From a virus, in the UHGV virus genome UHGV-0110231: a stretch of DNA of 41,294 nt; one strand, written 5' to 3'. The position numbers and the translations under genes were made by a program. Of this stretch, positions 132 through 38,829 are shown piece after piece. Under the pieces are notes generated by a model, which was not told the origin of the DNA, made no database searches, and saw only the letters and a list, made by a program, of their open reading frames with translations. Every line of letters begins with the position of its first letter. The first letter of the stretch is position 1.

Positions 132-188
132 TATGTATTCATTTCTATTCACTCTACACCATATTTTTCGGCGGTACAGGTGACGGTA

Positions 189-203
189 TTACCTTAAAGG
201 TAT
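189..203. promoter_or_regulatory. Operator-like palindrome TTACC-N5-GGTAt upstream of int
   Basis: TTACCTTAAAGGTAT; member of the recurrent TTACC-N5-GGTAA family. Confidence 0.4.
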
Positions 204-245
204 ACTCTCATACCGTCATGAAAATGGTTTCTATATGGGTGAATT

Positions 246-1496
246 GTGCTTACCGATACAAAATTAAAAAACCTCAAGCCGCAGGACAAACTGTACAAGG
301 TCTCCGATCGTGACGGGCTGTATGTAGCTGTGCTTACGTCAGGCACGGTCTCGTTTCGCTATGACTACCGTATCAACGGTCGCCGCGAAACACTGGTAAT
401 CGGGCAGTATGGGCGTGACGGTATCAGCCTGGCAGAAGCGCGAGAAGAACTGATTGCTGCAAAGAAGCTGCTTAAAGCAGGCCAGTCACCGGCTGCGGCT
501 AAACGTGACGGTATCAAAAAGATTCGTGGTGCCGAGACGTTTGCGGTACATACCGACAGTTATATGAAACACGTCATCCTGGCTGACAGTACCCGCGCAA
601 TGAAGCAGGCGGTGATCGACCGTGACATACTTCCGGTTCTTGGCAACAAAATGATGGCTGAAATTACCACATCGATGGTTCGTGATTTGTGTGACCGGAT
701 TGTCGAACGCGGTGGTCGGGCAACAGCAGTACAGGCCAGGGAGATCATCAGCAGCGTATACCGTCACGCCAATGACCGTGGTCATGGTTTGTTTAATCCT
801 GCCGCTGACATTAAACCTTCGTCTATCGCCATATTTAAACCACGAGAGCGAACACTGACACCAGAAGAAATTGGCCTGTTCTTCCGCACGCTGGATGCCA
901 TTGGTGCTATGGGCACTATGAAAATGGCTTTAAAGCTGGTGCTTATCACTATGGTTCGTAAAGGCGAATTCACCAATGCAACGTGGGATGAAATAGATTT
1001 TAAAAAATGGACATGGACAATTCCTTCAGACCGCATGAAGGGAAGCCGGGCGCACGTTATTTACCTGCCTAAACAGGCACAGGATATATTGGTTGGGTTG
1101 CAGATGTGCGCTGGTGGAAGTGAATATCTGGTTCCTGGTCGTTACAATTTCCGGAAGCCATTATCTAATGCCGCGCTGAACTCTCTGATCGACAGAACGG
1201 TGAAAATAATAAATGAAGATGGTGAGCGTATTCAGGACTTCACCGTACACGATATGCGCCGTACAGCAAGTACGTTGTTGCATGAGGCTGGTTATCCTTC
1301 AGACTGGATTGAAAAGGCTCTGGCACATGAGCAGAAAGGTGTGCGCGCCGTATATAACAAAGCGGAATACGCCAGACAGCGCGCCTACATGTTGCAGCAG
1401 TGGGCCGATATGATTGATTCCTGGATTGACGGGGAGCATACGGATCTGATTCCGTTCTCCCCGTCTAAGTTTGAGAAGTTGATGGCGGGGGAATAA
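246..1496 (+). CDS. int: Tyrosine integrase, P4/CP4-57 type
   Basis: 416 aa; N-terminus LTDTKLKNLKP...GLYVAV...FRYDYRINGRRETLVIGQY matches the P4-type arm-binding domain; GTG start; sits next to attL. Confidence 0.85.
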   Translation: MLTDTKLKNLKPQDKLYKVSDRDGLYVAVLTSGTVSFRYDYRINGRRETLVIGQYGRDGISLAEAREELIAAKKLLKAGQSPAAAKRDGIKKIRGAETFAVHTDSYMKHVILADSTRAMKQAVIDRDILPVLGNKMMAEITTSMVRDLCDRIVERGGRATAVQAREIISSVYRHANDRGHGLFNPAADIKPSSIAIFKPRERTLTPEEIGLFFRTLDAIGAMGTMKMALKLVLITMVRKGEFTNATWDEIDFKKWTWTIPSDRMKGSRAHVIYLPKQAQDILVGLQMCAGGSEYLVPGRYNFRKPLSNAALNSLIDRTVKIINEDGERIQDFTVHDMRRTASTLLHEAGYPSDWIEKALAHEQKGVRAVYNKAEYARQRAYMLQQWADMIDSWIDGEHTDLIPFSPSKFEKLMAGE

Positions 1497-1499
1497 CGT

Positions 1500-1694
1500 T
1501 TAATAGTTCTGCTGATTTTCTTCCATCTCTGCTTCTGCTGCCAGTGATTCAATTTTATCTGCGAATATTGCTGACAGTGTTGCAAATTCAGCATCAGTGA
1601 CAGCGGGAACTGGAACAAACCTGATCCCGCTGTGTGCAAGCATGTTTGCAGTTTCAAGACATTTCCTTAAATCTGCTGGTGATGCCCTGTTCAT
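1500..1694 (-). CDS. Hypothetical small protein (64 aa; the longer ORF to 1814 overlaps the methyltransferase)
   Basis: Internal ATG gives a 4-nt ATGA overlap with the upstream methyltransferase stop, suggesting translational coupling. Confidence 0.4.
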   Translation of the reverse strand: MNRASPADLRKCLETANMLAHSGIRFVPVPAVTDAEFATLSAIFADKIESLAAEAEMEENQQNY

Positions 1695-2341
1695 GCTGCA
1701 CGCTCCCGCCCCTGGTTGTCTGTTGGTGACAGCAGAGCATTGCTGAATGCATTTGTTAATCCGCCAATATCCAACGCGTATCCTGGGTGTAGTTGCACTG
1801 CCGGGTCTTCGCACTGATTACCCCAAACATCGAAACCATGAGACGACTGGCGGGCGAACAGTTCAATGCGAGAAACATCGCCTAACAATTGCACAAGTTT
1901 TTCACGAACGACATCTGGTTTTCTTGAATGCTCAAGCCGCGGTGCGGTAAATGACTGAACGATCCCTGCATTAATGCGCGGAGGTAGTTTTCCCTTTACT
2001 GCAAACAGGCAATCTTCACTATTGGCGCGAGTCATGTGTCCCATACCCATAACCAGTTTATCTGGTTGTCGACTACCACATTTTATCCATGTGAAGCCCT
2101 TCATGGTCATCAGACGGAATCCCCAGGCTTCAACAACTTTTAGAGCTTCGAGTGGTTGTGTTGGCACCCACCACATGGCCAACAGACAGTTTTCATCGGC
2201 CAAATCCCACACAGGAAGGCGGCAGATATCCATCACACTCATAACCGGATATTTAAAACCGGCACCGCGATTACCATCTGCGGCTTTGTCCCGGTATACC
2301 CAGGGTGGATCTGCATAGATTAGTGTGTATTTCTTAGTCAT
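1691..2341 (-). CDS. MT-A70-family N6-adenine DNA methyltransferase (orphan)
   Basis: 216 aa; catalytic DPPW motif within TLIYADPPWVY; no adjacent restriction endonuclease. Confidence 0.75.
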   Translation of the reverse strand: MTKKYTLIYADPPWVYRDKAADGNRGAGFKYPVMSVMDICRLPVWDLADENCLLAMWWVPTQPLEALKVVEAWGFRLMTMKGFTWIKCGSRQPDKLVMGMGHMTRANSEDCLFAVKGKLPPRINAGIVQSFTAPRLEHSRKPDVVREKLVQLLGDVSRIELFARQSSHGFDVWGNQCEDPAVQLHPGYALDIGGLTNAFSNALLSPTDNQGRERAA

Positions 2342-2633
2342 AAACCACCCCGCAACATCCTATACCGCTATAGTCGCCACGGCGAAGGCCGTTACCTTTT
2401 GTGATACATTGGTCCCTGCGAACCGCGATCCTTGCACGCTCAACATCACCAGAAGCAACATCCATACACTGAAGCCAAAGGTGAGCGGCAATGCGGAACT
2501 GTCCTTTTTTCTCTCTTTCAATTGCGCGTTTTTCGATCTCTATCGCCGCAGGAGTAACGGCGACAATCTTTGACGGACTGCGCATTGAAACCTTGTTCAT
2601 GTGATATTTTTCAAGTCGGCTTAACTTTCTCAC
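2334..2633 (-). CDS. Hypothetical protein
   Basis: 99-aa ORF in the leftward early operon; overlaps the methyltransferase start by 8 nt. Confidence 0.4.
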   Translation of the reverse strand: MRKLSRLEKYHMNKVSMRSPSKIVAVTPAAIEIEKRAIEREKKGQFRIAAHLWLQCMDVASGDVERARIAVRRDQCITKGNGLRRGDYSGIGCCGVVYD

Positions 2634-3040: not shown

Positions 3041-3922
3041 TTACATAGATGTTTCGTTTAATTCTTCCCGACGAACGCTGTAAACGTCGGTGGCTTTTGC
3101 CAGCAGTTCGTCATCATCTGAAAGTTTTTGTGCAATGTATTTGTAAGCCTTATCCAGTTCGGAGACAGTGCTGTAATTCATCGCTGCGCTGGTAAAGGCC
3201 ATCAGCATTTCTTCTGGATCACGGCTATCCGCTTTACGCGTTTGCTCATCATGCTTTTTCACTGGTTTAGCGTTGATCAGACTGTTCATTCCCGCAGCAG
3301 TAGTCGTTTGCGGAGTAATGTCTCGCTCAACGCGCGGTGCCGTTTCCTGTAATTCGTCAGGGGTGTAAACACCGAGAAGCACATCAGGAGCGTGCAGGCG
3401 AGCCCATCGTTTCGTGCAAAGATAGGCAAGCTGCTGGCGCGGATCCTGTTCCCACAATGGAGAGTTACGCACTCCGGCTTGCGCCATACTGATGGTAAGC
3501 TCACGGGGTTCTGCTTCTCCTTTAAGAACTGCTGACACAGTTACCGTCAGATTCGGTGATTTATCTGTTTTGCCGTTAACATTCGACCAGTCACCGCTCC
3601 AGCGATAATTCAGGCGTGTCGCCAGCAGGCTGGAAGAGGATACGACCGCGTTTACCAACTGTGCTTCGTAGCCTAACGTTCCGTTTACCACATGCGTTTT
3701 CTGCGCCACGGCGAAAGGGTTCATTCCCCACTGTGCCGCCTGCATGGTCACCGCCAGACAATCGGCAGGTTTGCCTTCAAGATGTTTCGGTACAGTCGCT
3801 TTGCTTTGTGACATCAACTCCGCGAAACGCACCAGTTGATTCATGCCCTCCGGGCTGAAGATTGCCGCAGCAGTACCTACAGTTGCGCCTGGTTGTGATG
3901 TGATTGCGATATCATTGCTCAT
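3041..3922 (-). CDS. RecT/Bet-like single-strand annealing recombinase
   Basis: 293 aa; sits immediately downstream of, and coupled to, the exonuclease gene; RecT-like central region. Confidence 0.6.
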   Translation of the reverse strand: MSNDIAITSQPGATVGTAAAIFSPEGMNQLVRFAELMSQSKATVPKHLEGKPADCLAVTMQAAQWGMNPFAVAQKTHVVNGTLGYEAQLVNAVVSSSSLLATRLNYRWSGDWSNVNGKTDKSPNLTVTVSAVLKGEAEPRELTISMAQAGVRNSPLWEQDPRQQLAYLCTKRWARLHAPDVLLGVYTPDELQETAPRVERDITPQTTTAAGMNSLINAKPVKKHDEQTRKADSRDPEEMLMAFTSAAMNYSTVSELDKAYKYIAQKLSDDDELLAKATDVYSVRREELNETSM

Positions 3923-5344: not shown

Positions 5345-5929
5345 TTATTGTTTGTTTTTTTCGTTCTGGTTGATGACAAATTCAATGTAACTTTCGATCT
5401 TTGCTTTCTCGGTTTCGGGTAACAATGCGTAGCGCGAGCGGTCATAGTTGATGGTCGCAGGGTCGTGCGGGTGAATCAGTAATTCATAGCCGTGACGCCC
5501 GAATGCGGATGCAACATTCTCCAGGGTGGAAATGGAAACGCTGACCTCATTGTTTAACAGGCGGCTGATTGTCACCTGGGCGACGCCGGATGCGCGGTGA
5601 AGTTTTCCCTGTGTTGAAAGGTCGCGGCTTTCGCTCATCCAGCGTTCCAGGTTGTGAGCCGCCAGCTGACCAATGTCGCTTGGGCCGACAGGCTGAAAAC
5701 CTTCCTGAGAAAGCGAGCGATCGATATCAAGCCAGTTACGGGGTTTATTGGCGGCAGCTTCAATTTTTCGCGCAACCTGGTCGCCGATAACCTTCTTGCC
5801 AAGAGCCCAGCGGTTTACCAGATTTGCCTGAGTTCCAAGTTTTTCTGCCATCCGCGTCTGAACACCATTGAATTCACGGTCGATCAAGTCGTTGAGATTT
5901 TGCCTGCGGACGTCCTGGATACTTTTCAT
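5345..5929 (-). CDS. Prophage repressor with two HTH (XRE-type) domains and no recognisable S24 peptidase domain
   Basis: 194 aa; N-terminal HTH (MAEKLGTQANLVNRWALGKK) and a second HTH (ASGVAQVTISRLLNNEVSVSISTLENVASAFG); divergent from the cro-like gene across an operator cluster. Confidence 0.7.
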   Translation of the reverse strand: MKSIQDVRRQNLNDLIDREFNGVQTRMAEKLGTQANLVNRWALGKKVIGDQVARKIEAAANKPRNWLDIDRSLSQEGFQPVGPSDIGQLAAHNLERWMSESRDLSTQGKLHRASGVAQVTISRLLNNEVSVSISTLENVASAFGRHGYELLIHPHDPATINYDRSRYALLPETEKAKIESYIEFVINQNEKNKQ

Positions 5930-6680: not shown

Positions 6681-7496
6681 ATGAGCAGACATGCAACAGA
6701 TTGGGCCTGGGAGACAGATCCAGGTAGCTCATCATTAAAGCTCATACTGCTCTCGATGGCTGACAGAGCCGATGAATATAACCTCTGCTACCCCAGCATA
6801 GAACGCCTCGTTAAAGACACTTGCCTGAATAAAAAAACCGTGCAGGCCGGGCTTATATCGCTCATGAAAATGGGGCTTATTTCAGATACCGGAGAGAGAA
6901 AGGGAGCGACAAAAAGAGTGCGGGTTTTCTCTCTTAATATAACCAAAAACGGGAACATTAAAGGCAACCGGGAGGGTGGCAATGAACCCGAAAACGGTAA
7001 TGTTACCGAAAACGGGAATATACCCAAAAACGGGATGTTGAATGATCCCAAAAACGGGATGTTGAATGATCCCAAAAACGGGATCCAGAACCAGTCATAT
7101 AACCAGTCATTTAACCAAGAGAGGGAGAGCAGGACAAAAAACGGGGATTCTGTGCATCATGACCCCGGCGCAAACAACGCCGTGATGAATAACTTTGTTC
7201 CTCCTGGTGGGCCAGGGCAATTAGGCAAATTTGTCATGCATGAACAATGGCAGCCATCAGATGACTTTCTTCGGAAAAGCTCATTGCAGGGGATCTACCT
7301 GGACAGTCTGCCAACGGCACAGGAACTTGCAGAGTTCAGAATTTACTGGATGGCTGAGGGTAAGGCATACCATCAGGCACAGTGGGAGCAGAAGCTGGCA
7401 AGGCGGCTGCAGATTAGCAGACAGAAGCAATCAACATTACCTGATAACAACGTTCCGCACTGGAACAGCCCTGAAGCATGGGAGGATTTCTTGTGA
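6681..7496 (+). CDS. Replication initiator (lambda O-like replisome organiser) with N-terminal winged-helix domain
   Basis: 271 aa; N-terminal HTH; iterons embedded in the coding sequence, as in lambda O. Confidence 0.65.
   Translation: MSRHATDWAWETDPGSSSLKLILLSMADRADEYNLCYPSIERLVKDTCLNKKTVQAGLISLMKMGLISDTGERKGATKRVRVFSLNITKNGNIKGNREGGNEPENGNVTENGNIPKNGMLNDPKNGMLNDPKNGIQNQSYNQSFNQERESRTKNGDSVHHDPGANNAVMNNFVPPGGPGQLGKFVMHEQWQPSDDFLRKSSLQGIYLDSLPTAQELAEFRIYWMAEGKAYHQAQWEQKLARRLQISRQKQSTLPDNNVPHWNSPEAWEDFL
6943..7083. repeat. Putative replication origin iterons (CCAAAAACGGGA, at least 5 copies including two exact 24-bp tandem units)
   Basis: Copies at 6943, 7006, 7024, 7048 and 7072, plus variants at 6988 and 7134; they encode the PKNGMLND peptide repeats. 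Confidence 0.6.
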
Positions 7497-11509: not shown

Positions 11510-11840
11510 ATCCCCCGCAGAACGCAAAGCCGCGCAGCGCGCTCGGCAGTCAGCCGCCGGTGAGCGCAAAATTGAACTGGTGCTGGATAAGCAGGAGCAG
11601 GAAATGCTGGAGCGTAACTGTGCCGCCCGTCGCCCTGGTCGTGCGCCGTATGAAATGAGCGAATACATCGCGTTACTGATCCGCCAGGATGATGCACGCG
11701 TGCGCGGGCGTATAAAATCGATCAGCAGAAAACGTTGCGGTAAGTGCGGCGAGAGAGTTCCAGTTAATTCATGCCCGTGTAATGGTGACTCGCAATGCTG
11801 GGTGACTAAAGGCTGGCATGAAACGAAATTAATAGTGTGA
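11493..11840 (+). CDS. Basic protein with C-terminal Cys cluster (zinc ribbon); candidate late-gene regulator
   Basis: 115 aa; CGKCGERVPVNSCPCNGDSQC; last gene before a terminator and the terminase genes. Confidence 0.45.
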   Translation: MRFVAKSPAERKAAQRARQSAAGERKIELVLDKQEQEMLERNCAARRPGRAPYEMSEYIALLIRQDDARVRGRIKSISRKRCGKCGERVPVNSCPCNGDSQCWVTKGWHETKLIV

Positions 11841-11848
11841 CATGTCAC
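11837..11848. repeat. Perfect 12-bp palindrome GTGACATGTCAC (copy 1)
   Basis: Overlaps the stop codon of the 11493..11840 gene. Confidence 0.7.
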
Positions 11849-11889
11849 GAGTAGATTATGCATGATGAATTTGATGGATTTTGAATACT

Positions 11890-14077: not shown

Positions 14078-14101
14078 AGCCAGCTCATCGGCTGGCTGTT
14101 T
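14078..14101 (+). terminator. Stem-loop terminator after the terminase large subunit gene
   Basis: AGCCAGC-tcatcg-GCTGGCT followed by GTTTGT. Confidence 0.4.
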
Positions 14102-14113
14102 GTGACATGTCAC
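14102..14113. repeat. Perfect 12-bp palindrome GTGACATGTCAC (copy 2)
   Basis: Between the convergent terminase and gp49-like genes. Confidence 0.7.
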
Positions 14114-14117
14114 GGTG

Positions 14118-14474
14118 TTATTGCTCGCTTAACTTCTGCTTCAGCAAGTAACCTTCAAGCATCCAGATTTTGTTTACAGCATTCTGCCGGGCAATCTTCC
14201 GACCAATTTCTGCATCAAAGTTTTCCGGGCTTGCACAGGCGCTCTCTCCGGTGACGGTGAAGCCATTCTTCAGCACCAGTACGCAGAAAGTAAGGAGGTC
14301 TGTAGATTTATGCGCTGTCCACGCATCGCCAACGCCCATATTGGCGGCACGAATACCGTCATAAGCAGTAAAGAAATGCTCTTCAAGAATGATGCTTTCG
14401 ATATATTGAGGCGTAACGCGCGGTGCCGTTTTGCCTTTCTCAACGATTTCTTTTTCGATTTGCTGGTCGTTCAT
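14118..14474 (-). CDS. Gp49-like phage protein of unknown function
   Basis: 118 aa; antisense to the flanking structural genes; family assignment from memory. Confidence 0.5.
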   Translation of the reverse strand: MNDQQIEKEIVEKGKTAPRVTPQYIESIILEEHFFTAYDGIRAANMGVGDAWTAHKSTDLLTFCVLVLKNGFTVTGESACASPENFDAEIGRKIARQNAVNKIWMLEGYLLKQKLSEQ

Positions 14475-14672: not shown

Positions 14673-14749
14673 TGGCGTGGCATGCAGGATTCGAACCTGC
14701 GACCAACCGCTTAGAAGGCGGTTGCTCTGTCCAACTGAGCTAATGCCAC
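14673..14749 (-). tRNA. tRNA-Arg (anticodon UCU), phage-encoded
   Basis: 77-nt cloverleaf read by hand: acceptor GTGGCAT/ATGCCAC, D-arm GCTC..GAGC, anticodon stem ACCGC/GCGGT with loop CTTCTAA, T-arm GCAGG-TTCGAAT-CCTGC, discriminator G, CCA encoded. Confidence 0.85.
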
Positions 14750-20883: not shown

Positions 20884-23354
20884 TGGCTATCAGTTGGATC
20901 CAGCCCAGCTTTGCCGGTGGTGAGATTGGACCGTCGTTGTACGGGCGTATTGACATGGCGAAGTACCAGGTAGCATTGCGCAAGTGCGATAACTTTATCG
21001 TGCGGCAGTATGGCGGCGTTGAGAATCGACCTGGTACGCGTTTTGTCGGTGCCGCCAAATACCCAAATCGGAAATGCCGCCTGATCCCGTTCCAGTTCTC
21101 GACGGTTCAGACTTATGCTCTGGAGTTCGGACACCAGTACATGCGCGTTATCAAAGATGGTGCGTTGGTGCTGAACAGCAGCAATGTTATTTATGAAATT
21201 GCCACGCCATATACTGAAGCCGATCTGTTCCGAATTAAATTCACGCAAAGCGCAGACGTGCTTACGCTGGTTCATCCGGCATACCCGCCGAAAGAGTTGC
21301 GCCGCTATGCGCATGACAACTGGCAACTGGTTGATGTGGTAACGAAGAACGGGCCATTTGAAGATATCAATATTGACGAGTCAGTGACGGTTTATGCCAG
21401 CGCCAGCACCGGGACAATTACGTTAACGGCAAGCGCCTCTATTTTTGGCGCGGAGCAGGTAGGCAAATTGTTCTATCTGGAACAGCCTGCAGTGGATTCA
21501 GTGCCGGTATGGGAAACCAGTAAGAGTACGTCGATTGGCGATATTCGCCGTGCAGACAGTAACTACTATCGCGCCGTTACAGCAGGCAAAACAGGCACTT
21601 TGCGCCCTTCGCATACAGAAGGCACATCATGGGATGGCTGGGGCGGATCCGGTGATGATGATACTGGCATTGAGTGGGAGTATCTGCACAGTGGTTTTGG
21701 TATTGCCCGTATCACTGCTGTAAACGGCACTACTGCAACTGCCGAGGTGATTTCCTATATCCCTTCGCAGGTCGTTGGCGAGGATAATGCCAGCTATAAA
21801 TGGGCTAAATATGCCTGGAACAGTGTTAATGGTTATCCTGGCACTGTTGTTTATTATCAACAACGTCTTTACTTCGCCGCATCGACTGCGTTCCCTCAGA
21901 CTATCTGGGCCAGCCGTACTGGGGATTATAAGGATTTTGGCAAAAGCAATCCTACGCAGGATGACGACAGAATTATCTACACCTATGCCGGGCGTCAGGT
22001 TAATGAGATCCGCCACCTGATTGATGTCGGTTCGCTGGTGGCGCTGACTTCCGGAGGTGAGTACGTCATCACCGGCGACCAGAACAAAGTATTAACCCCA
22101 TCATCATTTGCATTCAGCTCTCAGGGATCAAATGGCTCGAGCAATGTCCCACCAATTGCCGTGGCGAATATTGCTCTGTTCGTCCAGGAGAAAGGCAGTG
22201 TTGTCCGTGATCTGGCCTACTCATTCGATGTTGACGGCTATCAGGGGAACGACCTGACAATCCTTGCCAATCATCTTTTTCAGAAGCACAGCATTGTTGA
22301 CTGGTGCTTCTCTATTGTCCCTTACTCCAGCGCCTTCTGCATTCGTGATGACGGTAAATTACTGGTGATGACCTATTTGCGTGATCAGCAGGTTTTTGCA
22401 TGGGCACCACAATCCAGTACCGGAAAATATGAAAGCACATGCAGTATCAGCGAAGGCAATGAAGATGCGGTGTATTTCGTCGTTAACCGAACCGTTAACG
22501 GGCAAACAGTGAGATACATCGAGCGGCTGTCCAGCCGTTTATTTACCAGCGATGAAGATGCTTTCTTTGTTGATTCTGGCCTTAGCTATGATGGAAGAAA
22601 TACGTCTGACAGAACGATGACCATCACTGGTGGTTCTGGTGAATGGGATTACCGTGCGGAATATACAATCAGTGTTTCTGGTGGTGCGTACTTCACCAGT
22701 GGCGATGTCGGTGCGCAACTACAGTTCCCTTATACCGGAACTGATCCTGATACTGGCGATGAAGTGTCAAAAGAATTACGTTGCGACATCATTTCTGTAA
22801 CCAGCAATACCGCTGTAGTGGTTCGTGCTAACAGGAACGTCCCGCCATCCCTCAGGAATGTGGCCACCACGAACTGGCAGATGGCGCGTCGGACATTTGG
22901 AGGCCTGTCTCATCTTGAAGGACAGATCGTAAACATTCTTTCTGATGCGAATGTTGAGCCACAGAAAGTTATTTCCGGAGGTGCCGTCACACTGGAATCT
23001 CCGGGGGCTATAGTGCACATCGGCCTGCCAATAACTGCTGAATTCGAAACACTGGATATCAACATTAACGGACAGGAAACGCTGCTGGACAAAAAACAGG
23101 TGATCCCCTCCGTTACTCTGGTTGTGAATGCCAGCCGCGGCATCTGGGCGACTACGCCTGGCGGTAAATGGTACGAATATCCACAGCGTGAATTCGAGTT
23201 CTACGATGATCCTGTTGATGATGCTACCGGAAAAGTGGAAGTGAAACTGGACAGTAACTGGGGCAAAAACGGACGTGTAAAAATCCGTCAGCTTGACCCG
23301 TTGCCGCTGTCTGTTCTTGCCGTTATTCCTCGCCTTACTGTTGGGGGATTCTGA
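20883..23354 (+). CDS. Tail tubular protein B / nozzle (T7 gp12-like)
   Basis: 823 aa; size and position. Confidence 0.55.
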   Translation: MAISWIQPSFAGGEIGPSLYGRIDMAKYQVALRKCDNFIVRQYGGVENRPGTRFVGAAKYPNRKCRLIPFQFSTVQTYALEFGHQYMRVIKDGALVLNSSNVIYEIATPYTEADLFRIKFTQSADVLTLVHPAYPPKELRRYAHDNWQLVDVVTKNGPFEDINIDESVTVYASASTGTITLTASASIFGAEQVGKLFYLEQPAVDSVPVWETSKSTSIGDIRRADSNYYRAVTAGKTGTLRPSHTEGTSWDGWGGSGDDDTGIEWEYLHSGFGIARITAVNGTTATAEVISYIPSQVVGEDNASYKWAKYAWNSVNGYPGTVVYYQQRLYFAASTAFPQTIWASRTGDYKDFGKSNPTQDDDRIIYTYAGRQVNEIRHLIDVGSLVALTSGGEYVITGDQNKVLTPSSFAFSSQGSNGSSNVPPIAVANIALFVQEKGSVVRDLAYSFDVDGYQGNDLTILANHLFQKHSIVDWCFSIVPYSSAFCIRDDGKLLVMTYLRDQQVFAWAPQSSTGKYESTCSISEGNEDAVYFVVNRTVNGQTVRYIERLSSRLFTSDEDAFFVDSGLSYDGRNTSDRTMTITGGSGEWDYRAEYTISVSGGAYFTSGDVGAQLQFPYTGTDPDTGDEVSKELRCDIISVTSNTAVVVRANRNVPPSLRNVATTNWQMARRTFGGLSHLEGQIVNILSDANVEPQKVISGGAVTLESPGAIVHIGLPITAEFETLDININGQETLLDKKQVIPSVTLVVNASRGIWATTPGGKWYEYPQREFEFYDDPVDDATGKVEVKLDSNWGKNGRVKIRQLDPLPLSVLAVIPRLTVGGF

Positions 23355-24363: not shown

Positions 24364-26876
24364 TGCCAGTCGTACCAACAGTATCCGGACGTCAGGTTGA
24401 GAGCCGTGGAGTTCAGTCAGCAGGCTTGCAGACGTTTTCTCAGCCAGGTATTGGTGATGCTTTTGTTCTGGCAGGGGCAGAGACTATTGATGTTTTTGGT
24501 CAGGCAAAACAGCGTGCCAATATCGCTCTGGCTCAGGAGGCATCTCTTAACCTCAGTCAGATAAGCAGCGATCTGCTGAATAACCCTGAAACAGGGTTGC
24601 TTAACCTGAAAGGGAAAAATGCTATTGGAAAAGGCCATGAGTATACGCAGCAGTTTGATGCTCAGGTCGAACAACTGGCTATGTCGCTGCCGGATGAACA
24701 GGCTCGTAATACTTTCATGCAGCAGGCGCAGCAGCAGCGCATTCAGTTCACTACGCAGGCCGGGCGGCACGAGATAGGGCAAATAAACGCCTACGAAGAA
24801 GGCCAGTTTCAGGCTACGCTGCTGAACAATGGTAAAAATGCCGCAGCATTGTATGGCGACAACGCCGCATACGTATTGGCTAATAAGCAAACTTTCCAGC
24901 AAATTGAGGATTACGGCATTGCGCATGGCTGGAGCGACGAGCAAATCCAGGCCAAGAAAGTCGAGTTTAAAGAGAAGGTTGCTGATGCCGCATTGTCCCA
25001 GTGGTCGGCAAACAATGCGACCGCATTCATCCAAAGTAATGGCGAGTTAAGTGATACTGCTGCTGGAGCTCGCCGTGCTGTAGCAGATAGTGACTCTTCC
25101 GAGCGTGCCCGTGGCATACGCAACAATAACCCAGGAAATCTCGAATACAGCAAAACTAATCCGTGGGTAGGCCAGACCGGTGATGATGGTCGATTTGCTA
25201 AATTCGAAACACCTGAACACGGGATTCGTGCATTAGGGCGAAACCTGATGTCGTATCAGAGGCAGGGTATTGATACCGTCAGCGAGATAATTAATCGCTG
25301 GGCACCGCCTACTGATAAAAATGACACTATGTCGTATATCAAAGCAGTGTGCGAACAACTTGGCGTTTCTGCTGATGAGCCTCTCGATGCATCTAATCCT
25401 GATACCCTGAAGGCGCTTTGTGCAGCCATTATCCATCATGAGAACGGTAGCCAGCCATACAGTGATCAGCAGTTAACTGCTGGTGTCAGTGCAGCACTTG
25501 GTTTATCAACAATTCCAACCAACACCAAACGCTATACCGGTAATGCAGCATTCGATGCGGCATCTCCTGAGGCGCAGGCAAGTTTTATGCGAAAGGCGGA
25601 TCAACTGCGTCGGCAGCAGCAGGCTGAATATAAAACGATGATTGACAGCCAGGTTCGCGATGCGACAGCTGCGTATATGCGTGGCGTTGAATTTCCTAAC
25701 CCACCTGGTGAGGCTGATTTTATTGCAGCTTATGGAGTCAGAGAAGGAAACCTGCGATATACCGAGTTCAGAAATACGCAAATCGCCGGACAGTATATAG
25801 GCTCTTTCCGCAACATGCCGACAAGCAGCATTACAGCATATGTTGAGCAATTACGCCCGGATACTGGTGAGACAGGGGAGGGTTATGCGGCACGAGCCGC
25901 TCTTTATGACAACGTTGTGTCGGCTGCAAATCAGGTGATAAAGCAGCGACAGGCTGATCCTGTACAGTTCTCTCTTGCCGCCGGACAGGCAAAGCCTATC
26001 GACATGAGCAATAAGGATAACTTTGGACAGAGCGTTGCCTTGCGTGCTGCTCAGGTCAGTGACCTTGCTAAGTCATATGGCACTCCACTGACGTTCTTTT
26101 CCAAAGACGAGGCCAATCAGATCGGTGTTTTCTTTCGTGATGCGCCCGTTTCCCAACAGGCAGCATATCTCGATACCATCAGGCAGAGCACTGGTGGTGG
26201 GCAGGTGTATATGTCAGCACTACAGCAGATCAGTGCCAACGCTCCATCTGCTGCCGTTGCCGGGATACTGATGGATAAGCCAGGTGGTATTTTGGCAGAA
26301 AAAAACTGGTTTAATCCGGATGTTTCCGTGTCTCCTGAAACCGCTGCGCAGACAATTCTTGCTGGCGCGGCGGCTCGTAAAGGTACTGATGACGCGAAAG
26401 GTATTCCGATGCCTAAAGATGCTGATCTCCGCCTTGAGTTTTCTGACATGGTGAAGGATGCATTTGCTGGTGATGCTCAGGGGGCATCAATGGCATACGA
26501 GATCGCAAAGGACTATTACGCTGGTGTGATGGCGAAAAAAGGCGTGGTATCAGGCGAAATTGACAATGATATCTGGAAACAGGCTGTTAACGTAGCTACA
26601 GGTGGCGTGCATGACTATAACGGAATGGGGAATGTTCTTTTGCCGTGGGGAATGTCTGCAGAGCAATTCGATAAGCAGGTTAATCAGGCTTGGAATGAAC
26701 AAGTTGTTGGCACAGGGATAAAAACACCGCCTGGTCAGTATGGTTTGCAAAGTTACGGCGATAGTCAGTACCTGGTGAAACTTGGTACTGGTTATCTGCT
26801 AAAAGATGATGGTTCTCCCGTTGTTCTTGATCTGACACAGAAGCGTCAGAGATTCTCCGGAGATATTCCGCAATGA
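24363..26876 (+). CDS. Large internal virion / ejection protein
   Basis: 837 aa from the ATG at 24363 (TAATG overlap with the previous stop). Confidence 0.55.
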   Translation: MPVVPTVSGRQVESRGVQSAGLQTFSQPGIGDAFVLAGAETIDVFGQAKQRANIALAQEASLNLSQISSDLLNNPETGLLNLKGKNAIGKGHEYTQQFDAQVEQLAMSLPDEQARNTFMQQAQQQRIQFTTQAGRHEIGQINAYEEGQFQATLLNNGKNAAALYGDNAAYVLANKQTFQQIEDYGIAHGWSDEQIQAKKVEFKEKVADAALSQWSANNATAFIQSNGELSDTAAGARRAVADSDSSERARGIRNNNPGNLEYSKTNPWVGQTGDDGRFAKFETPEHGIRALGRNLMSYQRQGIDTVSEIINRWAPPTDKNDTMSYIKAVCEQLGVSADEPLDASNPDTLKALCAAIIHHENGSQPYSDQQLTAGVSAALGLSTIPTNTKRYTGNAAFDAASPEAQASFMRKADQLRRQQQAEYKTMIDSQVRDATAAYMRGVEFPNPPGEADFIAAYGVREGNLRYTEFRNTQIAGQYIGSFRNMPTSSITAYVEQLRPDTGETGEGYAARAALYDNVVSAANQVIKQRQADPVQFSLAAGQAKPIDMSNKDNFGQSVALRAAQVSDLAKSYGTPLTFFSKDEANQIGVFFRDAPVSQQAAYLDTIRQSTGGGQVYMSALQQISANAPSAAVAGILMDKPGGILAEKNWFNPDVSVSPETAAQTILAGAAARKGTDDAKGIPMPKDADLRLEFSDMVKDAFAGDAQGASMAYEIAKDYYAGVMAKKGVVSGEIDNDIWKQAVNVATGGVHDYNGMGNVLLPWGMSAEQFDKQVNQAWNEQVVGTGIKTPPGQYGLQSYGDSQYLVKLGTGYLLKDDGSPVVLDLTQKRQRFSGDIPQ

Positions 26877-28675
26877 GTTACTTTGGCCTTAATCCAGTAA
26901 ACCAGAATCAGCAGCTTGAAGAAGCAGCATCAAATCCAGCTGGCTTTAACAGCGATGTTGGTTTTTTCGACAATGCTGTAGGAGCGGCATTGTCTGGTTT
27001 GTACTCCGGGCTGGTGGCAAAGCCAGACCAGTTTCTATGGGCAGGGATGGATAAAATCGTATCCCCGGTTGCTCAGTTTGTTAACGAAAACACCTCGCTC
27101 AATGACACTTCAGTTTCATACATTGCTGAGCAGAGAAAACTAGCAGAGCAGCAGGTTAAGCGGCTGACGCCTGATGCCGCGACAACCGGAACCGCCGGGC
27201 AGGTCCTTTATGGGTTGTTCGATATGGGCGGGCAGGCTGTTGTCGGTACAACGCTCGGTGGTCCGGTCGGAGGTGCTGCGGCAGTAACTTCTCTACAGGG
27301 TTTTTCTGAGTTTGAACGGCTGACAGCACAGGGTGTTGATTTCAGGACGGCGCAGGAAGCGGGATTAGTGCAGGGTATTACTGCTGGTGCCGGAACACTG
27401 ATCCCTATGAGCCTCGGGTTACGTGCTGGTGGTGCGCTGGCGGAAGGTGTGGCGGCCCAGCTTGCGCGGACTGGTGAAAGTTCAGTGCGACGCGCCGCAG
27501 CAACAGCAGTACGTGCAACGCCAGATATTGCCTATGCTGCAGGTACAAATATTGCGTTCGGTATGGCACAGCGTGGGCTTACTGCAAAAACGCTTCGTGA
27601 TGGTGGCTATAGCGAAATGGCTAACCAGTATGATGTGTTGGATCGACAGGCAATTGCTATTGATGCTGTTCTTGGGGTGGCGTTTGGTGGTGTCGGCAGA
27701 TTTATTAACTCTCGCGGCGAGTCTACAAGCGCACCAAATTTTTCACCAGTTGATGTTGATGCTGCACTGGCGGCGAATGCCGCTCATCATGCTGAAATTG
27801 ATATTGCGCCCGGCGTGCCGATCAACGTGCTTTCGCGCAATTCTCACATTCAGGCTCTGCGAAAAGCTATGTCTGATGTTAGCCAGGGGAGACCTGTAGA
27901 CGTTGCCAGCATTGTTGAGTCTGCATCTTTCAGTGAAATTCCTAGGCGCAAGAGTCTGCTGTCTCAGGCAGTTAATGAGGCTCTGTCATCTGTAGATAAT
28001 GGAGTAACGGCGCGCGCTATAGAAAATCGGTTGCTTGAAGAACAGGCCGCGCAGCTTTTGCCGCGTGGAGATAGACAGGTTTACCAGTCTGAAATCGCTA
28101 ATAGCCAACGAATTATTGAAAATCTCACTGAACAGCGTGCACAAATTCTTGCAGAAGAGCCAACCGGTAGCGGTAAAGCTTTGTCTCGTGCTCGATCAGA
28201 TAAACAGGCTAGACTTCGCGATATTGATCAACGAATCCGGCAGGCACAAGAACGCCTGGAATTTTCCCGTAACGCGTTGGCACCGCACGAGCCAGGCGGT
28301 CAGTTTTTTGAGGCTCGAGCAGAACTGGCTCGGAGACAGCAGGCAGAAAGTGAACTTAATGCTCAGGCTGTTTCATTCTATAAAACAGCAGAGGTCAGGA
28401 TGCCAGACGAAGTAGCTCCTTTTGAGCCTGATAAAATATTGCAACAGGCAGAACAAAAAATAATGTCAGATCAGGCAGGAGATATTGATCTGCGCATAGC
28501 TGAAGACTCGCTGCTTGAATCACCTGACATGATAATCACCGTGCTGGATGATGATGGTAATCCACAATCGCGCAGTGCGCGTGAAGTACTGGATGAAGCG
28601 AACAGGGAAAGTGAGCAGGCAATACAGGATTCCAGCCTGTTTGATGTCGCTGTGGCGTGTTTCTTGAGAGGTTAA
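26873..28675 (+). CDS. Internal virion / ejection protein
   Basis: 600 aa; Ala/Gly-rich N-terminal region, coiled-coil C-terminal half. Confidence 0.5.
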   Translation: MSYFGLNPVNQNQQLEEAASNPAGFNSDVGFFDNAVGAALSGLYSGLVAKPDQFLWAGMDKIVSPVAQFVNENTSLNDTSVSYIAEQRKLAEQQVKRLTPDAATTGTAGQVLYGLFDMGGQAVVGTTLGGPVGGAAAVTSLQGFSEFERLTAQGVDFRTAQEAGLVQGITAGAGTLIPMSLGLRAGGALAEGVAAQLARTGESSVRRAAATAVRATPDIAYAAGTNIAFGMAQRGLTAKTLRDGGYSEMANQYDVLDRQAIAIDAVLGVAFGGVGRFINSRGESTSAPNFSPVDVDAALAANAAHHAEIDIAPGVPINVLSRNSHIQALRKAMSDVSQGRPVDVASIVESASFSEIPRRKSLLSQAVNEALSSVDNGVTARAIENRLLEEQAAQLLPRGDRQVYQSEIANSQRIIENLTEQRAQILAEEPTGSGKALSRARSDKQARLRDIDQRIRQAQERLEFSRNALAPHEPGGQFFEARAELARRQQAESELNAQAVSFYKTAEVRMPDEVAPFEPDKILQQAEQKIMSDQAGDIDLRIAEDSLLESPDMIITVLDDDGNPQSRSAREVLDEANRESEQAIQDSSLFDVAVACFLRG

Positions 28676-31350: not shown

Positions 31351-31647
31351 ATGCAAGCTATAGGATTCATTGTTTATATCGTCGTTGGTCTTTTTCAGTT
31401 GGCAGTAATTATGGCTGGGCTTGAATCATGGTTTGGATTGCACTGGATAATTGCAGCCCCCATTGCTTTCATCGTTAGCTATATTCCATTTGTTGGAGCG
31501 ATTGTTGGTATGGTTGGCGCTGTGGATGTATGGCGGTGGGAGTGGTGGCAGGCTGGCCTTCTCTTCTTTGGTGGGATCATCTTTGCTATTGTCTGCGGTG
31601 GAATGTCATCATTTTTCGAATGGCTATCATTCAGAAAAAGAACGTGA
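31351..31647 (+). CDS. Polytopic inner-membrane protein; candidate superinfection-exclusion factor
   Basis: 98 aa, roughly three hydrophobic helices; sits where P22 carries sieA. Confidence 0.5.
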   Translation: MQAIGFIVYIVVGLFQLAVIMAGLESWFGLHWIIAAPIAFIVSYIPFVGAIVGMVGAVDVWRWEWWQAGLLFFGGIIFAIVCGGMSSFFEWLSFRKRT

Positions 31648-31655
31648 CATGTCAC
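31644..31655. repeat. Perfect 12-bp palindrome GTGACATGTCAC (copy 3)
   Basis: Overlaps the stop codon of the 31351..31647 gene, in the same register as copy 1. Confidence 0.7.
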
Positions 31656-31679
31656 AGGCCGCTTTCGCGGCCTTTAAAT

Positions 31680-34953: not shown

Positions 34954-34958
34954 GCATA

Positions 34959-36761
34959 TTAATTTATTTTTGATAAAAGATACTTACCTACTATTTTAGA
35001 ACCATCACTAGAAAGATGCCCACCATCAAAATAAACCGGTTTATCATTATGAATAACCATGCACTTCCCATTCTTGCACAGCTCGTCTTTAGGATTTATT
35101 ATCTTATAAGAGGCAAGCCCATCCCCTGAGTTCTCTATAAATAAATCATCAAGTTTTGTGCTCTTTATATCTACTAAATTTTTGCAGCCATCAAGTATGT
35201 GTCTAACTGGAAGTCTATTTCCATTCATGCAAGAAACAACGTCATAGTTTGGATGTTGGTAATTTCCTATTACATACATTCTTTTATCTTTATTAATAAG
35301 TTGTCGCCACTTGTTTATTTGTGAGAGTATAACATTATTATATGATGACTTACTTACATAATCTCCATGACGACTTATTAATTTATCATTATATCTCTCC
35401 CAGTTATGAGCAAGTATTATAGTGTTTGATTTCGATTTATTTATCTCATTGATTGCTTTTTCATACATCGAATAGCATCCTGATTCTTCTTTAGCATAAT
35501 AATCAGGAAGAATTGGGCATGACACTAACGAAATAAATGTTGCATTTATACCTTCACTGTCAATAAAGTCAATGAATTGCTGTGAGTAGCTATCACCAAC
35601 AAAAATAATGCCATCCTGTTTGCTTGATTCATTCAAATGCAAAATCTTTCCATTTGCCTTACCAAATAGTCTGTGTCCTCCATATGACGTATCCACCTTG
35701 CTACTTATCCTTGATGGAGCACCGGCGTAAAATATTGATGATGATATTAACATCATAAATATATATGAAAACAAAATAATATTTATATTTTTAACTTTAG
35801 ATTCAACTAAATGATGAAGTATTAATGATAAAGTGAAAACAATAAACAAATAAAAAAATAACCCAACCTCAATATTTAACTTTCTGAAAAACACTATGAC
35901 AGGCCAATGCACAAGATAAATCGAATAAGAAATTATTCCTATGTACTGTATTACTCTGTTTCTAAAGAATGAATTTTCGTTCATTCCTGAATGTATTACA
36001 AGCATAGCTCCGACAACAGGCACTATTGCATTTACGCCAGGCCACGCCATCGTGTCATTATAAATAATGAATGATAACAGTATCAATACAACACCAAATA
36101 TCTCTCCAATCCTATTTAATTTTAATTTTTTATTAATCACATAAACTATTGCCCCGCCCATCATTTGCCAGGATCTTCCGGGGAGAGAATAGTATGCAAA
36201 TTTACTATGATTGAATGCTTGATATATAGAAAGCGCAAGCGATAAAACGAATATTGAGTAAATAAGAACAACTCTATTGCTTCTATTTTTTACGAGATAT
36301 AAAAAAATTGGGAATAGTATATAGAATTGCCATTCAACAGAAAGTGACCACGTATGAAGTAGTATTTTGCTTTTTGAGTCCGAATCAAAATACCCACTCT
36401 CAAATGCATACACATAATTTGATATGAATGACATGCTTGATAGCATATGCTTTCCAAGCATTTTGTATGATGTTACATCAAGTGATACAAAACCTATTAT
36501 TGAAGTAAACAAAACAACTGCAATAAGTGCTGGTATAATTCTTTTTACTCTTGATGTGTAAAATTTTTTAAATGAAAAGTTACCATTATCCATCCCATTC
36601 ATTATGATGGAGGTCATAAGATAACCTGATATCACGAAGAAAATATCTACGCCAGCAAATCCACCCGGTAACCACTGCGGATTAAAATGAAAAATCACAA
36701 CAGACATGACTGCTATAGCTCTCAGTCCGTCAATATCCTTTCTGCGTTGAATGGAAGGCAT
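34959..36761 (-). CDS. Membrane acyltransferase-3 (OafA-like) with C-terminal SGNH domain; putative O-antigen acetyltransferase
   Basis: 600 aa; N-terminal acyltransferase-3 motifs (DGLRAIAVMSVVIFHF), multiple TM helices, soluble C-terminal domain; strongly AT-rich compared with the rest of the prophage. Confidence 0.75.
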   Translation of the reverse strand: MPSIQRRKDIDGLRAIAVMSVVIFHFNPQWLPGGFAGVDIFFVISGYLMTSIIMNGMDNGNFSFKKFYTSRVKRIIPALIAVVLFTSIIGFVSLDVTSYKMLGKHMLSSMSFISNYVYAFESGYFDSDSKSKILLHTWSLSVEWQFYILFPIFLYLVKNRSNRVVLIYSIFVLSLALSIYQAFNHSKFAYYSLPGRSWQMMGGAIVYVINKKLKLNRIGEIFGVVLILLSFIIYNDTMAWPGVNAIVPVVGAMLVIHSGMNENSFFRNRVIQYIGIISYSIYLVHWPVIVFFRKLNIEVGLFFYLFIVFTLSLILHHLVESKVKNINIILFSYIFMMLISSSIFYAGAPSRISSKVDTSYGGHRLFGKANGKILHLNESSKQDGIIFVGDSYSQQFIDFIDSEGINATFISLVSCPILPDYYAKEESGCYSMYEKAINEINKSKSNTIILAHNWERYNDKLISRHGDYVSKSSYNNVILSQINKWRQLINKDKRMYVIGNYQHPNYDVVSCMNGNRLPVRHILDGCKNLVDIKSTKLDDLFIENSGDGLASYKIINPKDELCKNGKCMVIHNDKPVYFDGGHLSSDGSKIVGKYLLSKIN

Positions 36762-36801
36762 TCTTACCTCTAAACATTGATTATTATTTTATAAGATAAT
36801 A

Positions 36802-36816
36802 TCACCCAGAAGGTAA
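36802..36816. promoter_or_regulatory. Operator-like palindrome between the acyltransferase and the lysis cassette
   Basis: TCACCCAGAAGGTAA. Confidence 0.45.
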
Positions 36817-36921
36817 TTTTGGTAAGAACAATTTTGGGTATGTTTAACCACATATGGTTTATTGTGTATGATGAACTCACCAACTAAGGGGGTTCTTTAT
36901 GCGTATTAAACGGTGGTCACT

Positions 36922-37326
36922 ATGTCTGCATCGCTAACCGCTGACACAATAAATCAGGGGCTTAGCTACGGAGCGTTGGCGGCAGTGGTCGCTGGGGTTC
37001 CTCCAGAGGTGGCGTTAGGTTCGCTGGCAGGCGCGGTAATTTTCGTTACCTCTGCCGTCGAGTATCCAGTTAAGCGCCGCGTCCTGCTTTCTCTTCTCAG
37101 CTTTCTCTGTGGCTTGCTCTTCTATAAACCTACTGCCTCTATCCTGATCGGTGTTGCCAGCTTGATCCCAACAATCACGCAGGAATCGTTCGAGAGAGGC
37201 GTGGTATTTTCTGCTGGTGCATTCGTGTCGGCAATCGTCGCGGTACGTGTTGGCATCTGGCTTTATCACCGTTCCGATAATCCACGCGAATTAATTCCGG
37301 GGAGAAAAGACGATGACAACTCATGA
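36922..37326 (+). CDS. Holin-like membrane protein
   Basis: Several TM segments and a charged C-terminal tail; alternative GTG start at 36913. Confidence 0.5.
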   Translation: MSASLTADTINQGLSYGALAAVVAGVPPEVALGSLAGAVIFVTSAVEYPVKRRVLLSLLSFLCGLLFYKPTASILIGVASLIPTITQESFERGVVFSAGAFVSAIVAVRVGIWLYHRSDNPRELIPGRKDDDNS

Positions 37327-37621
37327 GCTGCTTTTACTGATTGCCAATGCGGTTATCTGTTCTGCGATAGCAATCCGCGTCGGAACCTTCCGGCGTAATG
37401 GCTCACAACACCGCCGGTGGGGTGGGTGGATAGCCTACTTCCTTATCGTGGCATCCGCCAGCATCCCCGTCCGCGCCGCATATGCAATCTGGTATCACAC
37501 ACCAATGGCCGCTGATTTATCAGAGGTCATCATCAATGCTGTCATGCTTGCCGCCGTTCTGAAGACGCGCGGTAACGTCGTGCAGATATTCAAAATATCG
37601 AGGTCTCAACATGGACATTAA
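37313..37621 (+). CDS. Holin / antiholin-like membrane protein
   Basis: 102 aa with about 3 TM helices; immediately precedes the endolysin gene. Confidence 0.55.
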
Positions 37622-38240
37622 CCAGTTCCGGCGCGCAGCCGGTATCACTGAGCAACTGGCCGCACGCTGGTATCCACACATCACTGCAGCAATGAATGAA
37701 TTTGGCATTACCAAGCCAGAAGACCAGGCGATGTTTATTGCGCAGGTCGGGCATGAGTCCGGAGGTTTTACCCGGTTGCAGGAAAACTTCAACTACAGCG
37801 TGAGTGGGTTGTCAGGTTTCATCCGCGCCGGGCGTCTCACTCTGGGCCAGGCCAATGCTTTGGGCCGCCGTGCTGGTGAACCATCGTTACCGCTGGAGCG
37901 CCAGCGCGCAATCGCAAATCTGGTGTACAGCAAACGCATGGGTAACAATGCTCCAGGCGATGGCTGGAATTACCGTGGGCGCGGGCTTATCCAGATTACC
38001 GGTTTGAATAACTATCGTGACTGCGGAAACGGTCTGAAAGTTGACCTGCTGGAGAATCCTGAACTGCTGGCGCAGGACGTATACGCGGCTCGTAGCGCGG
38101 CGTGGTTCTTCTCCAGCAAAGGCTGCATGAAGTATACCGGAGATATTGCACGTGTAACTCTGATTATCAATGGTGGCCGGAACGGCATTGATGACCGGCG
38201 CGCGCGATACATCACTGCCAGTAAGGTGCTGACGGTATGA
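37611..38240 (+). CDS. Endolysin, glycoside hydrolase family 19 (chitinase-like)
   Basis: 209 aa; motifs [12 protein letters not shown] and ENFNYS are characteristic of GH19 lysins. Confidence 0.75.
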
Positions 38241-38719
38241 TCCTGACATTCGTAAGAGCATATTGGAAACAGCTGCTTATCGTGTTGATGCTTGCTGCTC
38301 TGTTCATCGTCGGAGTGGTTGCCTGGAATATACACGGCAGCCGCCAGTACGATGCCGGGTATGCGCAGGCGGAAGAAGACCGCAAAGCCGAAGATGAGAA
38401 TGTTCGTCAGCACTATGAACAGGAGAAAGCGATCAATGAACGCAAAGCGCAGCAGAGGATCGACCAGGCGCGCAATAATGCTCTTGATGCTGCCGCTCGC
38501 GCTGGCCGGTTGCAGCAACAGCTCGTTGCCATCCGTGAGCAGCTCAGGCAGTATAACGCCATTGTCGGCGCTGGGACGTCAGCCACAGAAACCGGAGTTT
38601 TGCTTGCCGACGTGCTCAGCAAATCTCTCGAGAGAAACAGACAACTGGCAGAGTATGCTGACCGGGCAGCCGAAGCCGGAAGAGTCTGCGAAAAACAGTA
38701 TGACACCCTGACCAGATAG
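38237..38719 (+). CDS. Rz-like i-spanin
   Basis: 160 aa; N-terminal TM helix then coiled-coil periplasmic domain; ATGA overlap with the endolysin stop. Confidence 0.7.
38478..38711 (+). CDS. Rz1-like o-spanin lipoprotein, embedded in the +1 frame of Rz
   Basis: [16 protein letters not shown] has a lipobox (LAGC); Pro/Ser-rich mature part. Confidence 0.6.
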   Translation: MLLMLPLALAGCSNSSLPSVSSSGSITPLSALGRQPQKPEFCLPTCSANLSRETDNWQSMLTGQPKPEESAKNSMTP

Positions 38720-38829
38720 CATGGTATTTTTCATGGTACTGATTTCCGGTGACGGTATATAAAACGGTACGAGGAAAATTGAGCTTTGGAAAAATGTGAT
38801 CACTCAATTGGTTATGGTGCCCGTAAATA

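Follow-up and report, generated by a model that had tools for sequence, protein, structure and literature searches.

Short repeats on both arms of the guaA attachment site of a phiV10-like prophage as candidate integrase arm-type sites

What recognises the short repeats that lie on both sides of the attachment (att) core of the prophage in UHGV virus genome UHGV-0110231? The stretch analysed here (hereafter the window) is 41,294 nucleotides long and comprises the 3' end of guaA (1-55), a ~38.8-kb prophage (56-38829), and Escherichia coli chromosome at the right end; the matched left flank is annotated as guaA in E. coli genomes. The prophage is of the phiV10/epsilon15-like type (Uetakevirus), integrated into E. 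coli guaA at its 3' end, and its nearest phages are phiV10, TL-2011b, and vB_EcoP_ZX5 (98% nucleotide identity), followed by epsilon15 and SPN1S (~81%), all of them Uetakeviruses. A preliminary description had proposed that the repeats on both arms are candidate arm-type sites of the prophage integrase (Int), a proposal that is supported in silico by the domain content of Int, the placement of the repeats, their distribution in relatives, control comparisons, and an existing annotation of epsilon15. We consider it likely that the repeats are arm-type sites for the N-terminal arm-binding domain of this guaA-specific Int, with a unit of ~9 bp, TGACGGTAW. The features on which this reading depends are given below.

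39-55, + strand: att core ATTGAGTGGGAATGATT in attL, an exact duplicate of 38830-38846, covering the last guaA codons and the stop codon.
169-177, + strand: degenerate P' copy CGGCGGTAC (6/9 matches), 12 bp upstream of the main P' site, at the family +128 position.
181-189, + strand: candidate P' arm-type site TGACGGTAT, the core of the 11-mer at 179-189, at the family +140 position; invariant in eight phages.
210-218, - strand: candidate inverted P' arm-type site TGACGGTAT, at +169 in the window (most of the family: +179 to +181).
246-1496, + strand: int, encoding a guaA-specific tyrosine integrase of the epsilon15 cluster (Pfam PF13356, PF22022, PF00589); GTG start.
416-424, + strand: copy TGACGGTAT inside the int open reading frame (ORF), codons 57-60, 361 bp from the core.
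506-514, + strand: in-ORF copy TGACGGTAT, int codons 87-90, 451 bp from the core.
758-766, - strand: inverted copy inside int, with no counterpart at this position in epsilon15; the scattered copies of relatives lie elsewhere.
38750-38758, + strand: candidate P arm-type site TGACGGTAT, the core of the 11-mer at 38748-38758, 80 bp before the core.
38762-38770, + strand: degenerate P arm copy AAACGGTAC, 12 bp downstream of 38750-38758, inside an invariant 21-bp block.
38830-38846, + strand: att core ATTGAGTGGGAATGATT in attR, an exact duplicate of 39-55.

As first described, the identical 11-mer GGTGACGGTAT occurs exactly twice in the window, at 179-189 and 38748-38758, both times on the + strand and on the prophage-interior side of the att core, within attL and attR, respectively. 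The inverted GACGGTA half reported at 211-217 (TACCGTC) is also present, and its match even extends to the 9-mer TGACGGTAT at 210-218 (-). The identity of the two 11-mers stands, but the conserved unit is the 9-mer TGACGGTAW. Because the bases ahead of this unit vary among relatives (CACG-, TACC-, CAGA-), the leading 'GG' of the 11-mer falls outside the motif, and TGACGGTAT is taken as the recognition unit.

Taken alone, a pair of identical 11-mers carries little weight: there are 452 such direct pairs in the window, and 32/5000 mononucleotide shuffles yield an 11-mer common to the two arms (p ~0.006). The significant signal is recurrence. With at most one mismatch, the 11-mer has 8 matches (0.52 expected; 0/100 shuffles that high), and TGACGGTAW has 11 (0.51 expected; no shuffle >2), seven of which lie within ~1.35 kb around the reconstituted attP and the 5' end of int. 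The 10-mer GTGACGGTAT occurs five times in the window (180, 415, 505, 758 (-), and 38749), always near att. Copies beyond those listed in the preliminary description are the two in int, the degenerate neighbours 12 bp off, and the non-conserved copy at 758-766 (-), which from its distribution is probably outside the att system. A TGACGGTAW copy at 38230-38238 is not conserved in epsilon15. Four further copies are found far from att, at 3541-3549 (-), 14353-14361 (-), 22349-22357 (+), and 25273-25281 (-), where ~0.46 are expected; these could reflect chance, codon effects, or extra Int sites. A scan of epsilon15 for the TGACGGTAT form only returns a single distant copy, at 17469 (-).

Int has the N-terminal arm-binding domain ascribed to it: Pfam Arm-DNA-bind_3 (PF13356) covers residues 2-87 (E = 3.9e-20), and the N-terminus matches the solved integrase N-domains PDB 3ju0 (E = 2.5e-12) and 3jtz (E = 3.7e-11). 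The remaining domains are Phage_int_M (core-binding) and Phage_integrase (catalytic). Int is 87.6% identical to epsilon15 Int at the amino acid level over 99% of its length; after a gap, other phage integrases follow at <40%, and HK620 Int is a 29.9% homologue. By sequence, the window Int is assigned to the epsilon15 cluster of P4/SXT-like integrases; for this cluster of the IntSXT subgroup, the known target is the 3' flank of guaA (PMC8138268). The prophage shows both features of this targeting, namely insertion at the 3' end of guaA and a GAGTGGGA-containing core at both ends. The identical 17-mer core has been experimentally shown for ZX5 and reported for phiV10 and epsilon15 (PMC9782041), and the integration site of GIsul2 is the same GAGTGGGA (PMC9376610). 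The repeated motif is distinct from the core ATTGAGTGGGAATGATT, and lies on both attP arms in both orientations.

In the reconstituted attP, the left tandem pair is ~80/68 bp from the core, the right tandem pair is at ~+115/+126, and the inverted copy is at +155. Counted from the first G of GAGTGGGA, the window positions are +128 (the degenerate CGGCGGTAC), +140, and +169 (inverted); int starts at +204. For close relatives, this attP was aligned with the attP regions of seven phages having Int 82-98% identical (eight Uetakeviruses in all). In the P arm, a 21-bp block, GTGACGGTATATAAAACGGTA, is invariant between variable flanks; in the P' arm, the conserved pattern is CGGTAY-A..-TGACGGTATTACC...GGTATAcTCT.CATACCGTCA. 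In Tyrion and BUCT554 the inverted copy (210-218 in the window) has degenerated, and the left copy shows no change that would compensate.

The GenBank record of epsilon15 (AY150271.2) has four protein_bind features with 'integrase' as the bound moiety, all reading GTGACGGTAT (26651-26660, 26873-26882, 27108-27117, and 27198-27207), and these match window positions 38749, 180, 415, and 505. In the phiV10 record the sequence is identical but carries no 'integrase' site annotation. Judging from the record, the integrase-site hypothesis for these repeats already existed as a prediction for epsilon15, and the preliminary description restates it. The epsilon15 record also labels the stretch of the inverted pair (26874-26912) as an RNase III site, and predicts integration host factor (IHF) sites in both arms. 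One IHF-like match, which is weak evidence, is present in the window:

38802-38814, + strand: IHF-like site ACTCAATTGGTTA (12/13 matches to WATCAANNNNTTR) within the conserved block TCAATTGGTTATG, core-proximal to the P arm sites.

No IHF-like match was found in a scan of the P' arm, and the epsilon15 IHF sites are in both arms predictions only.

The motif is retained far beyond the Uetakeviruses. One genome per species was scanned, giving 47 Int homologues from 91% down to 25% identity. Those at 47-91% amino acid identity come from Entero-, Aero-, Beta-, and Alphaproteobacteria and, with few exceptions, adjoin the guaA 3' end with a GAGTGGGA core; arms were tabulated for 27 of them. GACGGTA is present in 26 of these 27 P' arms, usually in two to five copies and in up to seven, the exception being C. 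sedlakii. The P' arm has 13.6 copies per kb, the first 350 nt of int 4.3, the rest of int 0.66, and the downstream sequence 0.05. In unbiased 7-mer counting GACGGTA ranks first, with at least two copies, in 16/16 distant arms. The motif alone is common to the window P' arm and the distant arms; the guaA-int stretch is otherwise unalignable. Its offsets from the first G of GAGTGGGA recur across the family: a tandem pair with a 12-bp period at +128/+140, an inverted copy at +179 to +181, and copies at ~+205, ~+275, and ~+298. A copy at +138 to +141 is found in 15 of 20 representative loci, and the +128 position, at which the window has the degenerate CGGCGGTAC, holds a full GACGGTA in K. pneumoniae, Tyrion-like, and other relatives. 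The consensus of 80 sites is T(68/80)-GACGGTA-T/A(43/30), with GAC invariant by site selection. On the P side, a Proteus mirabilis prophage (Int 62% identical) carries the tandem pair GACGGTAtcggtGACGGTG at -83/-71 (window -82/-70) in otherwise unrelated sequence; the 12-bp period is common to this Proteus P arm and to the P and P' pairs of the window.

Across the family, Int is best conserved at residues 1-56, where identity is 66-86%, compared with 50-67.5% in the catalytic and 40-79% in the core-binding domain; this fits an invariant DNA target. As a control, seven Int-type proteins at 25-38% identity, with the same Pfam architecture and other targets, were considered. No GACGGTA was found upstream of int in any of the seven, and three of them have clear repeats of their own (CATGGGCACAA x8, TGTGACA x6, and ATGTACC x5). 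The motif is kept along with the arm-binding domain and replaced where the domain diverges. Searching IMG/VR for relatives of the window Int and of a Chromobacterium Int returned near-identical E. coli prophages or contigs ending at int, with few Uetakevirus-like loci informative on the arms. Records from Ralstonia and Sphingomonas confirm the P' layout but give no clean attR, and the Ralstonia island is ridden with insertion sequences.

Two of the distant loci have peculiarities of their own. 'Plasmid p5' of Sphingomonas parapaucimobilis (3975 bp, deposited as circular) consists solely of guaA, a family int, and alpA, and is probably a misassembled guaA-island junction, not a plasmid. In P. 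mirabilis H110 (~35785-35960, reverse-complemented), a ~170-bp remnant of a second P' arm, with a tandem GACGGTA pair, lies beyond the attR of a 34.8-kb prophage; this suggests a decayed tandem insertion at guaA.

The two copies inside int (416-424 and 506-514) encode xDGI, and were assessed by codon comparison across nine lineages (the window, epsilon15, BUCT711, C. sedlakii, Pantoea, Morganella, two Edwardsiella, and Tolumonas). There are 45 degenerate codon columns with an invariant amino acid, and only six of these use a single codon; three of the six are in the motifs, namely D58 (GAC), G59 (GGT), and G89 (GGT). Six other invariant Gly columns use two to four codons each. At codon 57 the amino acid varies (R/C/I/P/A/S), while the third base is always T, and in the second in-ORF site GACGGTA is kept through an Ile -> Lys change (GACGGTAAA; GACGGTAA retained). 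This synonymous-site invariance in the motif codons points to DNA-level selection on the in-ORF copies, which are probably extra Int-binding sites serving autoregulation or an extended attP. They are confined to Enterobacterales and Tolumonas; betaproteobacterial and alphaproteobacterial members instead have longer arms with the +275 and +298 copies.

Two members of the family have a different motif. GIsul2 (on pAB3, locus positions 420-735; Int 54% identical) carries the variant repeat CATGGTAT at +152, +189 (inverted), +217, and +285, and C. sedlakii (locus positions 1285-1500; Int 73% identical) carries nCGGTAT at +129, +141, and +179 (inverted). Both keep the family site positions with the motif changed, the GIsul2 positions being shifted by ~12 bp, and in both the arm-binding domain of Int has Ser for Arg at residue 42 (YDYR -> YDYS / YNYS). 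With n = 2, this covariation of residue 42 and motif is suggestive. A search for homologous proteins added no residue-42 variants, since among the matches listed 120/120 were E. coli proteins 99-100% identical.

The P' sites also lie where int transcription is expected to begin. Because int transcription runs away from the core, these sites would flank the likely int promoter, which is probably near 188-206: a -10-like TATACT (TATAAT in epsilon15) is present at 201-206, between the 181-189 and 210-218 sites, and is overlapped by the following palindrome.

188-204, no strand assigned: repressor-operator-like palindrome ATTACC-N5-GGTATA (ATTACC-TTAAA-GGTATA), 10/12 to the epsilon15 'repressor' motif ATTACC-N5-GGTAAT; conserved in eight phages.

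In KplE1, the arm-type P' sites of IntS overlap PintS in attL and mediate autorepression (PMC2951348); by analogy, Int probably represses its own synthesis. As the promoter call is weak, the autoregulation step is on weak footing. TTACC-N5-GGTAA(T) palindromes sit upstream of operons across the prophage (189-203, 5211, 5273, 5985, 6370, 8316, 8378, 11927, and 15072, with a variant at ~32014); the phage repressor is encoded at 5345-5929. The motif is annotated seven times as 'repressor' in epsilon15, where the palindrome of the int promoter region is without annotation.

Several observations weigh against assigning the repeats to Int. A literature search for binding or genetic data on members of the epsilon15 cluster found none in the accessible literature. 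The P-arm comparison covers two independent lineages only. The in-ORF copies are 360-450 bp from the core, beyond the usual range of arm sites, and are absent in the beta- and alphaproteobacterial members. A consensus promoter scan of the P' arm detected no sigma-70 promoter, the best -35 (GTGACG, 180-185) having a 15-bp spacer. The P' site abuts the operator-like palindrome, from which part of the conservation among Uetakeviruses could stem. Finally, a candidate excisionase, or recombination directionality factor (RDF), is co-inherited with int across the family and could bind some or all of the copies:

2743-2991, - strand: AlpA-family excisionase (RDF) candidate, 82 aa; phrog_66 'excisionase and transcriptional regulator', E = 2e-16.

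AlpA-like homologues (36-44% identity) are encoded directly downstream of int in most distant loci, and on this evidence int and alpA form a conserved module in guaA-family elements. It is unlikely, if the most plausible of the alternatives, that the repeats are bound by this AlpA-like RDF rather than by Int, or by both. The AlpA-like protein co-varies with motif presence as well as Int does, and tandem direct repeats with a period of ~12 bp are typical of RDF sites (lambda Xis, TorI), which counts for the RDF. RDF sites, however, usually form a tight direct-repeat array on one arm, whereas the copies here occupy both arms in either orientation and extend over >200-450 bp (from -82 to +298, and to +465 in the window). 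Furthermore, identity between the AlpA-like proteins of the window and of distant elements is no more than 36-44%, against 66-86% for the arm-binding domain of Int and an invariant motif. The AlpA of GIsul2 is 47-51% identical to those of elements with the GACGGTA-type motif, about as close as that of the window, and yet the GIsul2 motif differs, a change that tracks Int residue 42.

Much less probable is that the 179-189 copy is a repressor half-site of the int promoter/operator and that the other copies are coincidental look-alikes. The GGTAT tail does resemble the GGTAAT half-site, and the abutting palindrome at 188-204 is a 10/12 match to an operator motif found at eight other places in the window, but no palindrome partner accompanies the P arm copy, the conservation includes TGAC and not GGTAT alone (T at -1 in 68/80 sites), and the motif keeps its offsets in elements whose neighbour genes are quite different, in arms otherwise unrelated. 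We attach similarly little weight to an RNA hairpin, in which the inverted pair 181-189/210-218 would be an RNase III site controlling int mRNA and the other copies would be unrelated: alongside the epsilon15 RNase III annotation, the 165-260 stretch folds at -25.8 kcal/mol. The z-score of this fold is modest (z = -2.0), Tyrion and BUCT554 break one or two pairs without compensating change, and the inverted copy of distant relatives is the same motif at a variable loop distance, not a mere complement; the P arm and in-ORF copies would be left unexplained. A search of Rfam gave no family match at att, and the hairpin was rejected for lack of covariation. Least credible is chance or coding by-product, whereby the 11-mer pair would be coincidental and the in-gene copies would reflect R-D-G-I in common codons. 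The abundance of identical 11-mer pairs in the window agrees with coincidence, and the in-gene D-G-I is conserved in the protein even where the DNA motif is absent; against this stand the ~20-fold enrichment over shuffles, the family-wide retention in non-coding arms, and the restriction of synonymous-site invariance to the motif codons. For the arm copies, chance was ruled out by the family-wide presence of GACGGTA, its top rank among 7-mers, and its fixed offsets.

If the repeats are Int arm-type sites, Int molecules would bridge them and the core-type sites via their two DNA-binding ends, aided by host bending proteins. The bridged complex would constitute the intasome for integration at guaA and, together with the AlpA-like excisionase, for excision; Int bound at the P' sites flanking the likely int promoter would probably repress its own synthesis, as IntS of KplE1 does. 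The presence of the motif, its clustering, conservation, and spacing, and the domain make-up of Int are observed; Int as the binder, the promoter overlap, autoregulation, and the involvement of IHF are the parts of this scheme that we infer from sequence.

A broader proposal, to which we give slightly less than even chances, is that guaA-specific integrases from Alpha- to Gammaproteobacteria share an ancient, fixed TGACGGTAW attP scaffold (-82/-70, +128/+140, ~+180 inverted, +205, +275, and +298) whose intervening sequence has been randomised. In the enterobacterial/Tolumonas lineage, two functional Int sites would have moved into int as an intragenic autoregulatory or extended-attP element, constraining synonymous positions and amino acid choice, and specificity for TGACGGTAT vs. 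nCGGTAT or CATGGTAT would depend in part on residue 42, which is S in GIsul2 and C. sedlakii and otherwise R.

Other features of the prophage bear on neighbouring matters. One of them lies between the core and the P' arm sites:

100-123 (or to 133), + strand: phage rho-independent terminator, from a terminator scan, which stands in for the guaA terminator.

It is an 84% direct repeat of the native guaA terminator (38866-38897), which has been displaced to ~38870-38895, and a terminator is kept in 8/8 phages. A tRNA-Arg(tct) gene is within the prophage (14673-14749, -). An ORF at 6681-7496 contains four copies of a 24-nt GAATGATCCCAAAAACGGGATGTT-like repeat at 6935-7087, three of them tandem; these resemble iterons, as at a replication origin inside a replication gene. 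A 14-bp palindrome, TGTGACATGTCACG, occurs three times (11836-11849, 14101-14114, and 31643-31656), with two mismatches in one copy, always near gene boundaries.

For the window itself the sites matter little, being the expected accessory sites of a well-known integrase class and already predicted for the type phage. The additions made here are modest: the fixed layout across the family, the DNA-level constraint on the two int sites, and the possible covariation of residue 42 and motif. Approximately 10% of complete E. coli genomes have this integrase at guaA (guaA and the window integrase together in 565/5426; BLAST of 1-1600), and the same integrase cluster mobilises GIsul2, the carrier of sul2. 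A defined arm motif and layout would provide minimal attP substrates for engineering based on phiV10/epsilon15, as well as better delimitation of guaA islands, and the natural variants of motif and domain offer material on arm-site specificity in the structurally under-studied Arm-DNA-bind_3 domain. The papers on the epsilon15 cluster (Smyshlyaev et al., 2021, PMC8138268, including CMGI-3; PMC9376610 for GIsul2) cover target site and mobility and describe no arm-type sites; a full-text search for GACGGTA, guaA, and integrase gave no match.

Among known systems, epsilon15 is the closest: like the window prophage it belongs to the genus Uetakevirus, uses the guaA core, and has GTGACGGTAT at four homologous places (P arm, P' arm, and two inside int). 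The window, unlike epsilon15, holds an integrated phiV10-like E. coli prophage, so that attL contains some of its sites and attR the others. In the epsilon15 record, neither the inverted copy nor the degenerate neighbours are marked as integrase sites, and both sets of sites are predictions.

The arm-type sites of lambda Int (P1, P2, and P'1-P'3) consist of a ~10-bp motif on both arms, apart from the core sites. Lambda and the window share a heterobivalent integrase and a repeated motif on both arms; lambda also has IHF sites between arm and core, where the window may have one, the weak IHF-like match of its P arm. They differ in that the lambda Int N-domain belongs to a family other than Arm-DNA-bind_3 and int faces the opposite way; in the window, the sites reach +126/+155, and +451 from the core inside int.

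The IntS/TorI system of KplE1 (HK620-like; Panis et al., 2010, PMC2951348) differs from the window in its target, the argW tRNA gene rather than guaA, and in its TAAA-containing motif, and no in-ORF sites are reported for it. Binding has been demonstrated in KplE1, whereas in the window it is predicted. Both have a P4-like Int with an arm-binding domain, an int gene pointing away from the core, and a separate RDF gene (a candidate in the window). In KplE1 the arm-type sites lie in the int promoter region and negative autoregulation by Int is demonstrated; in the window the candidate sites may be placed likewise, and Int would regulate itself in the same way.

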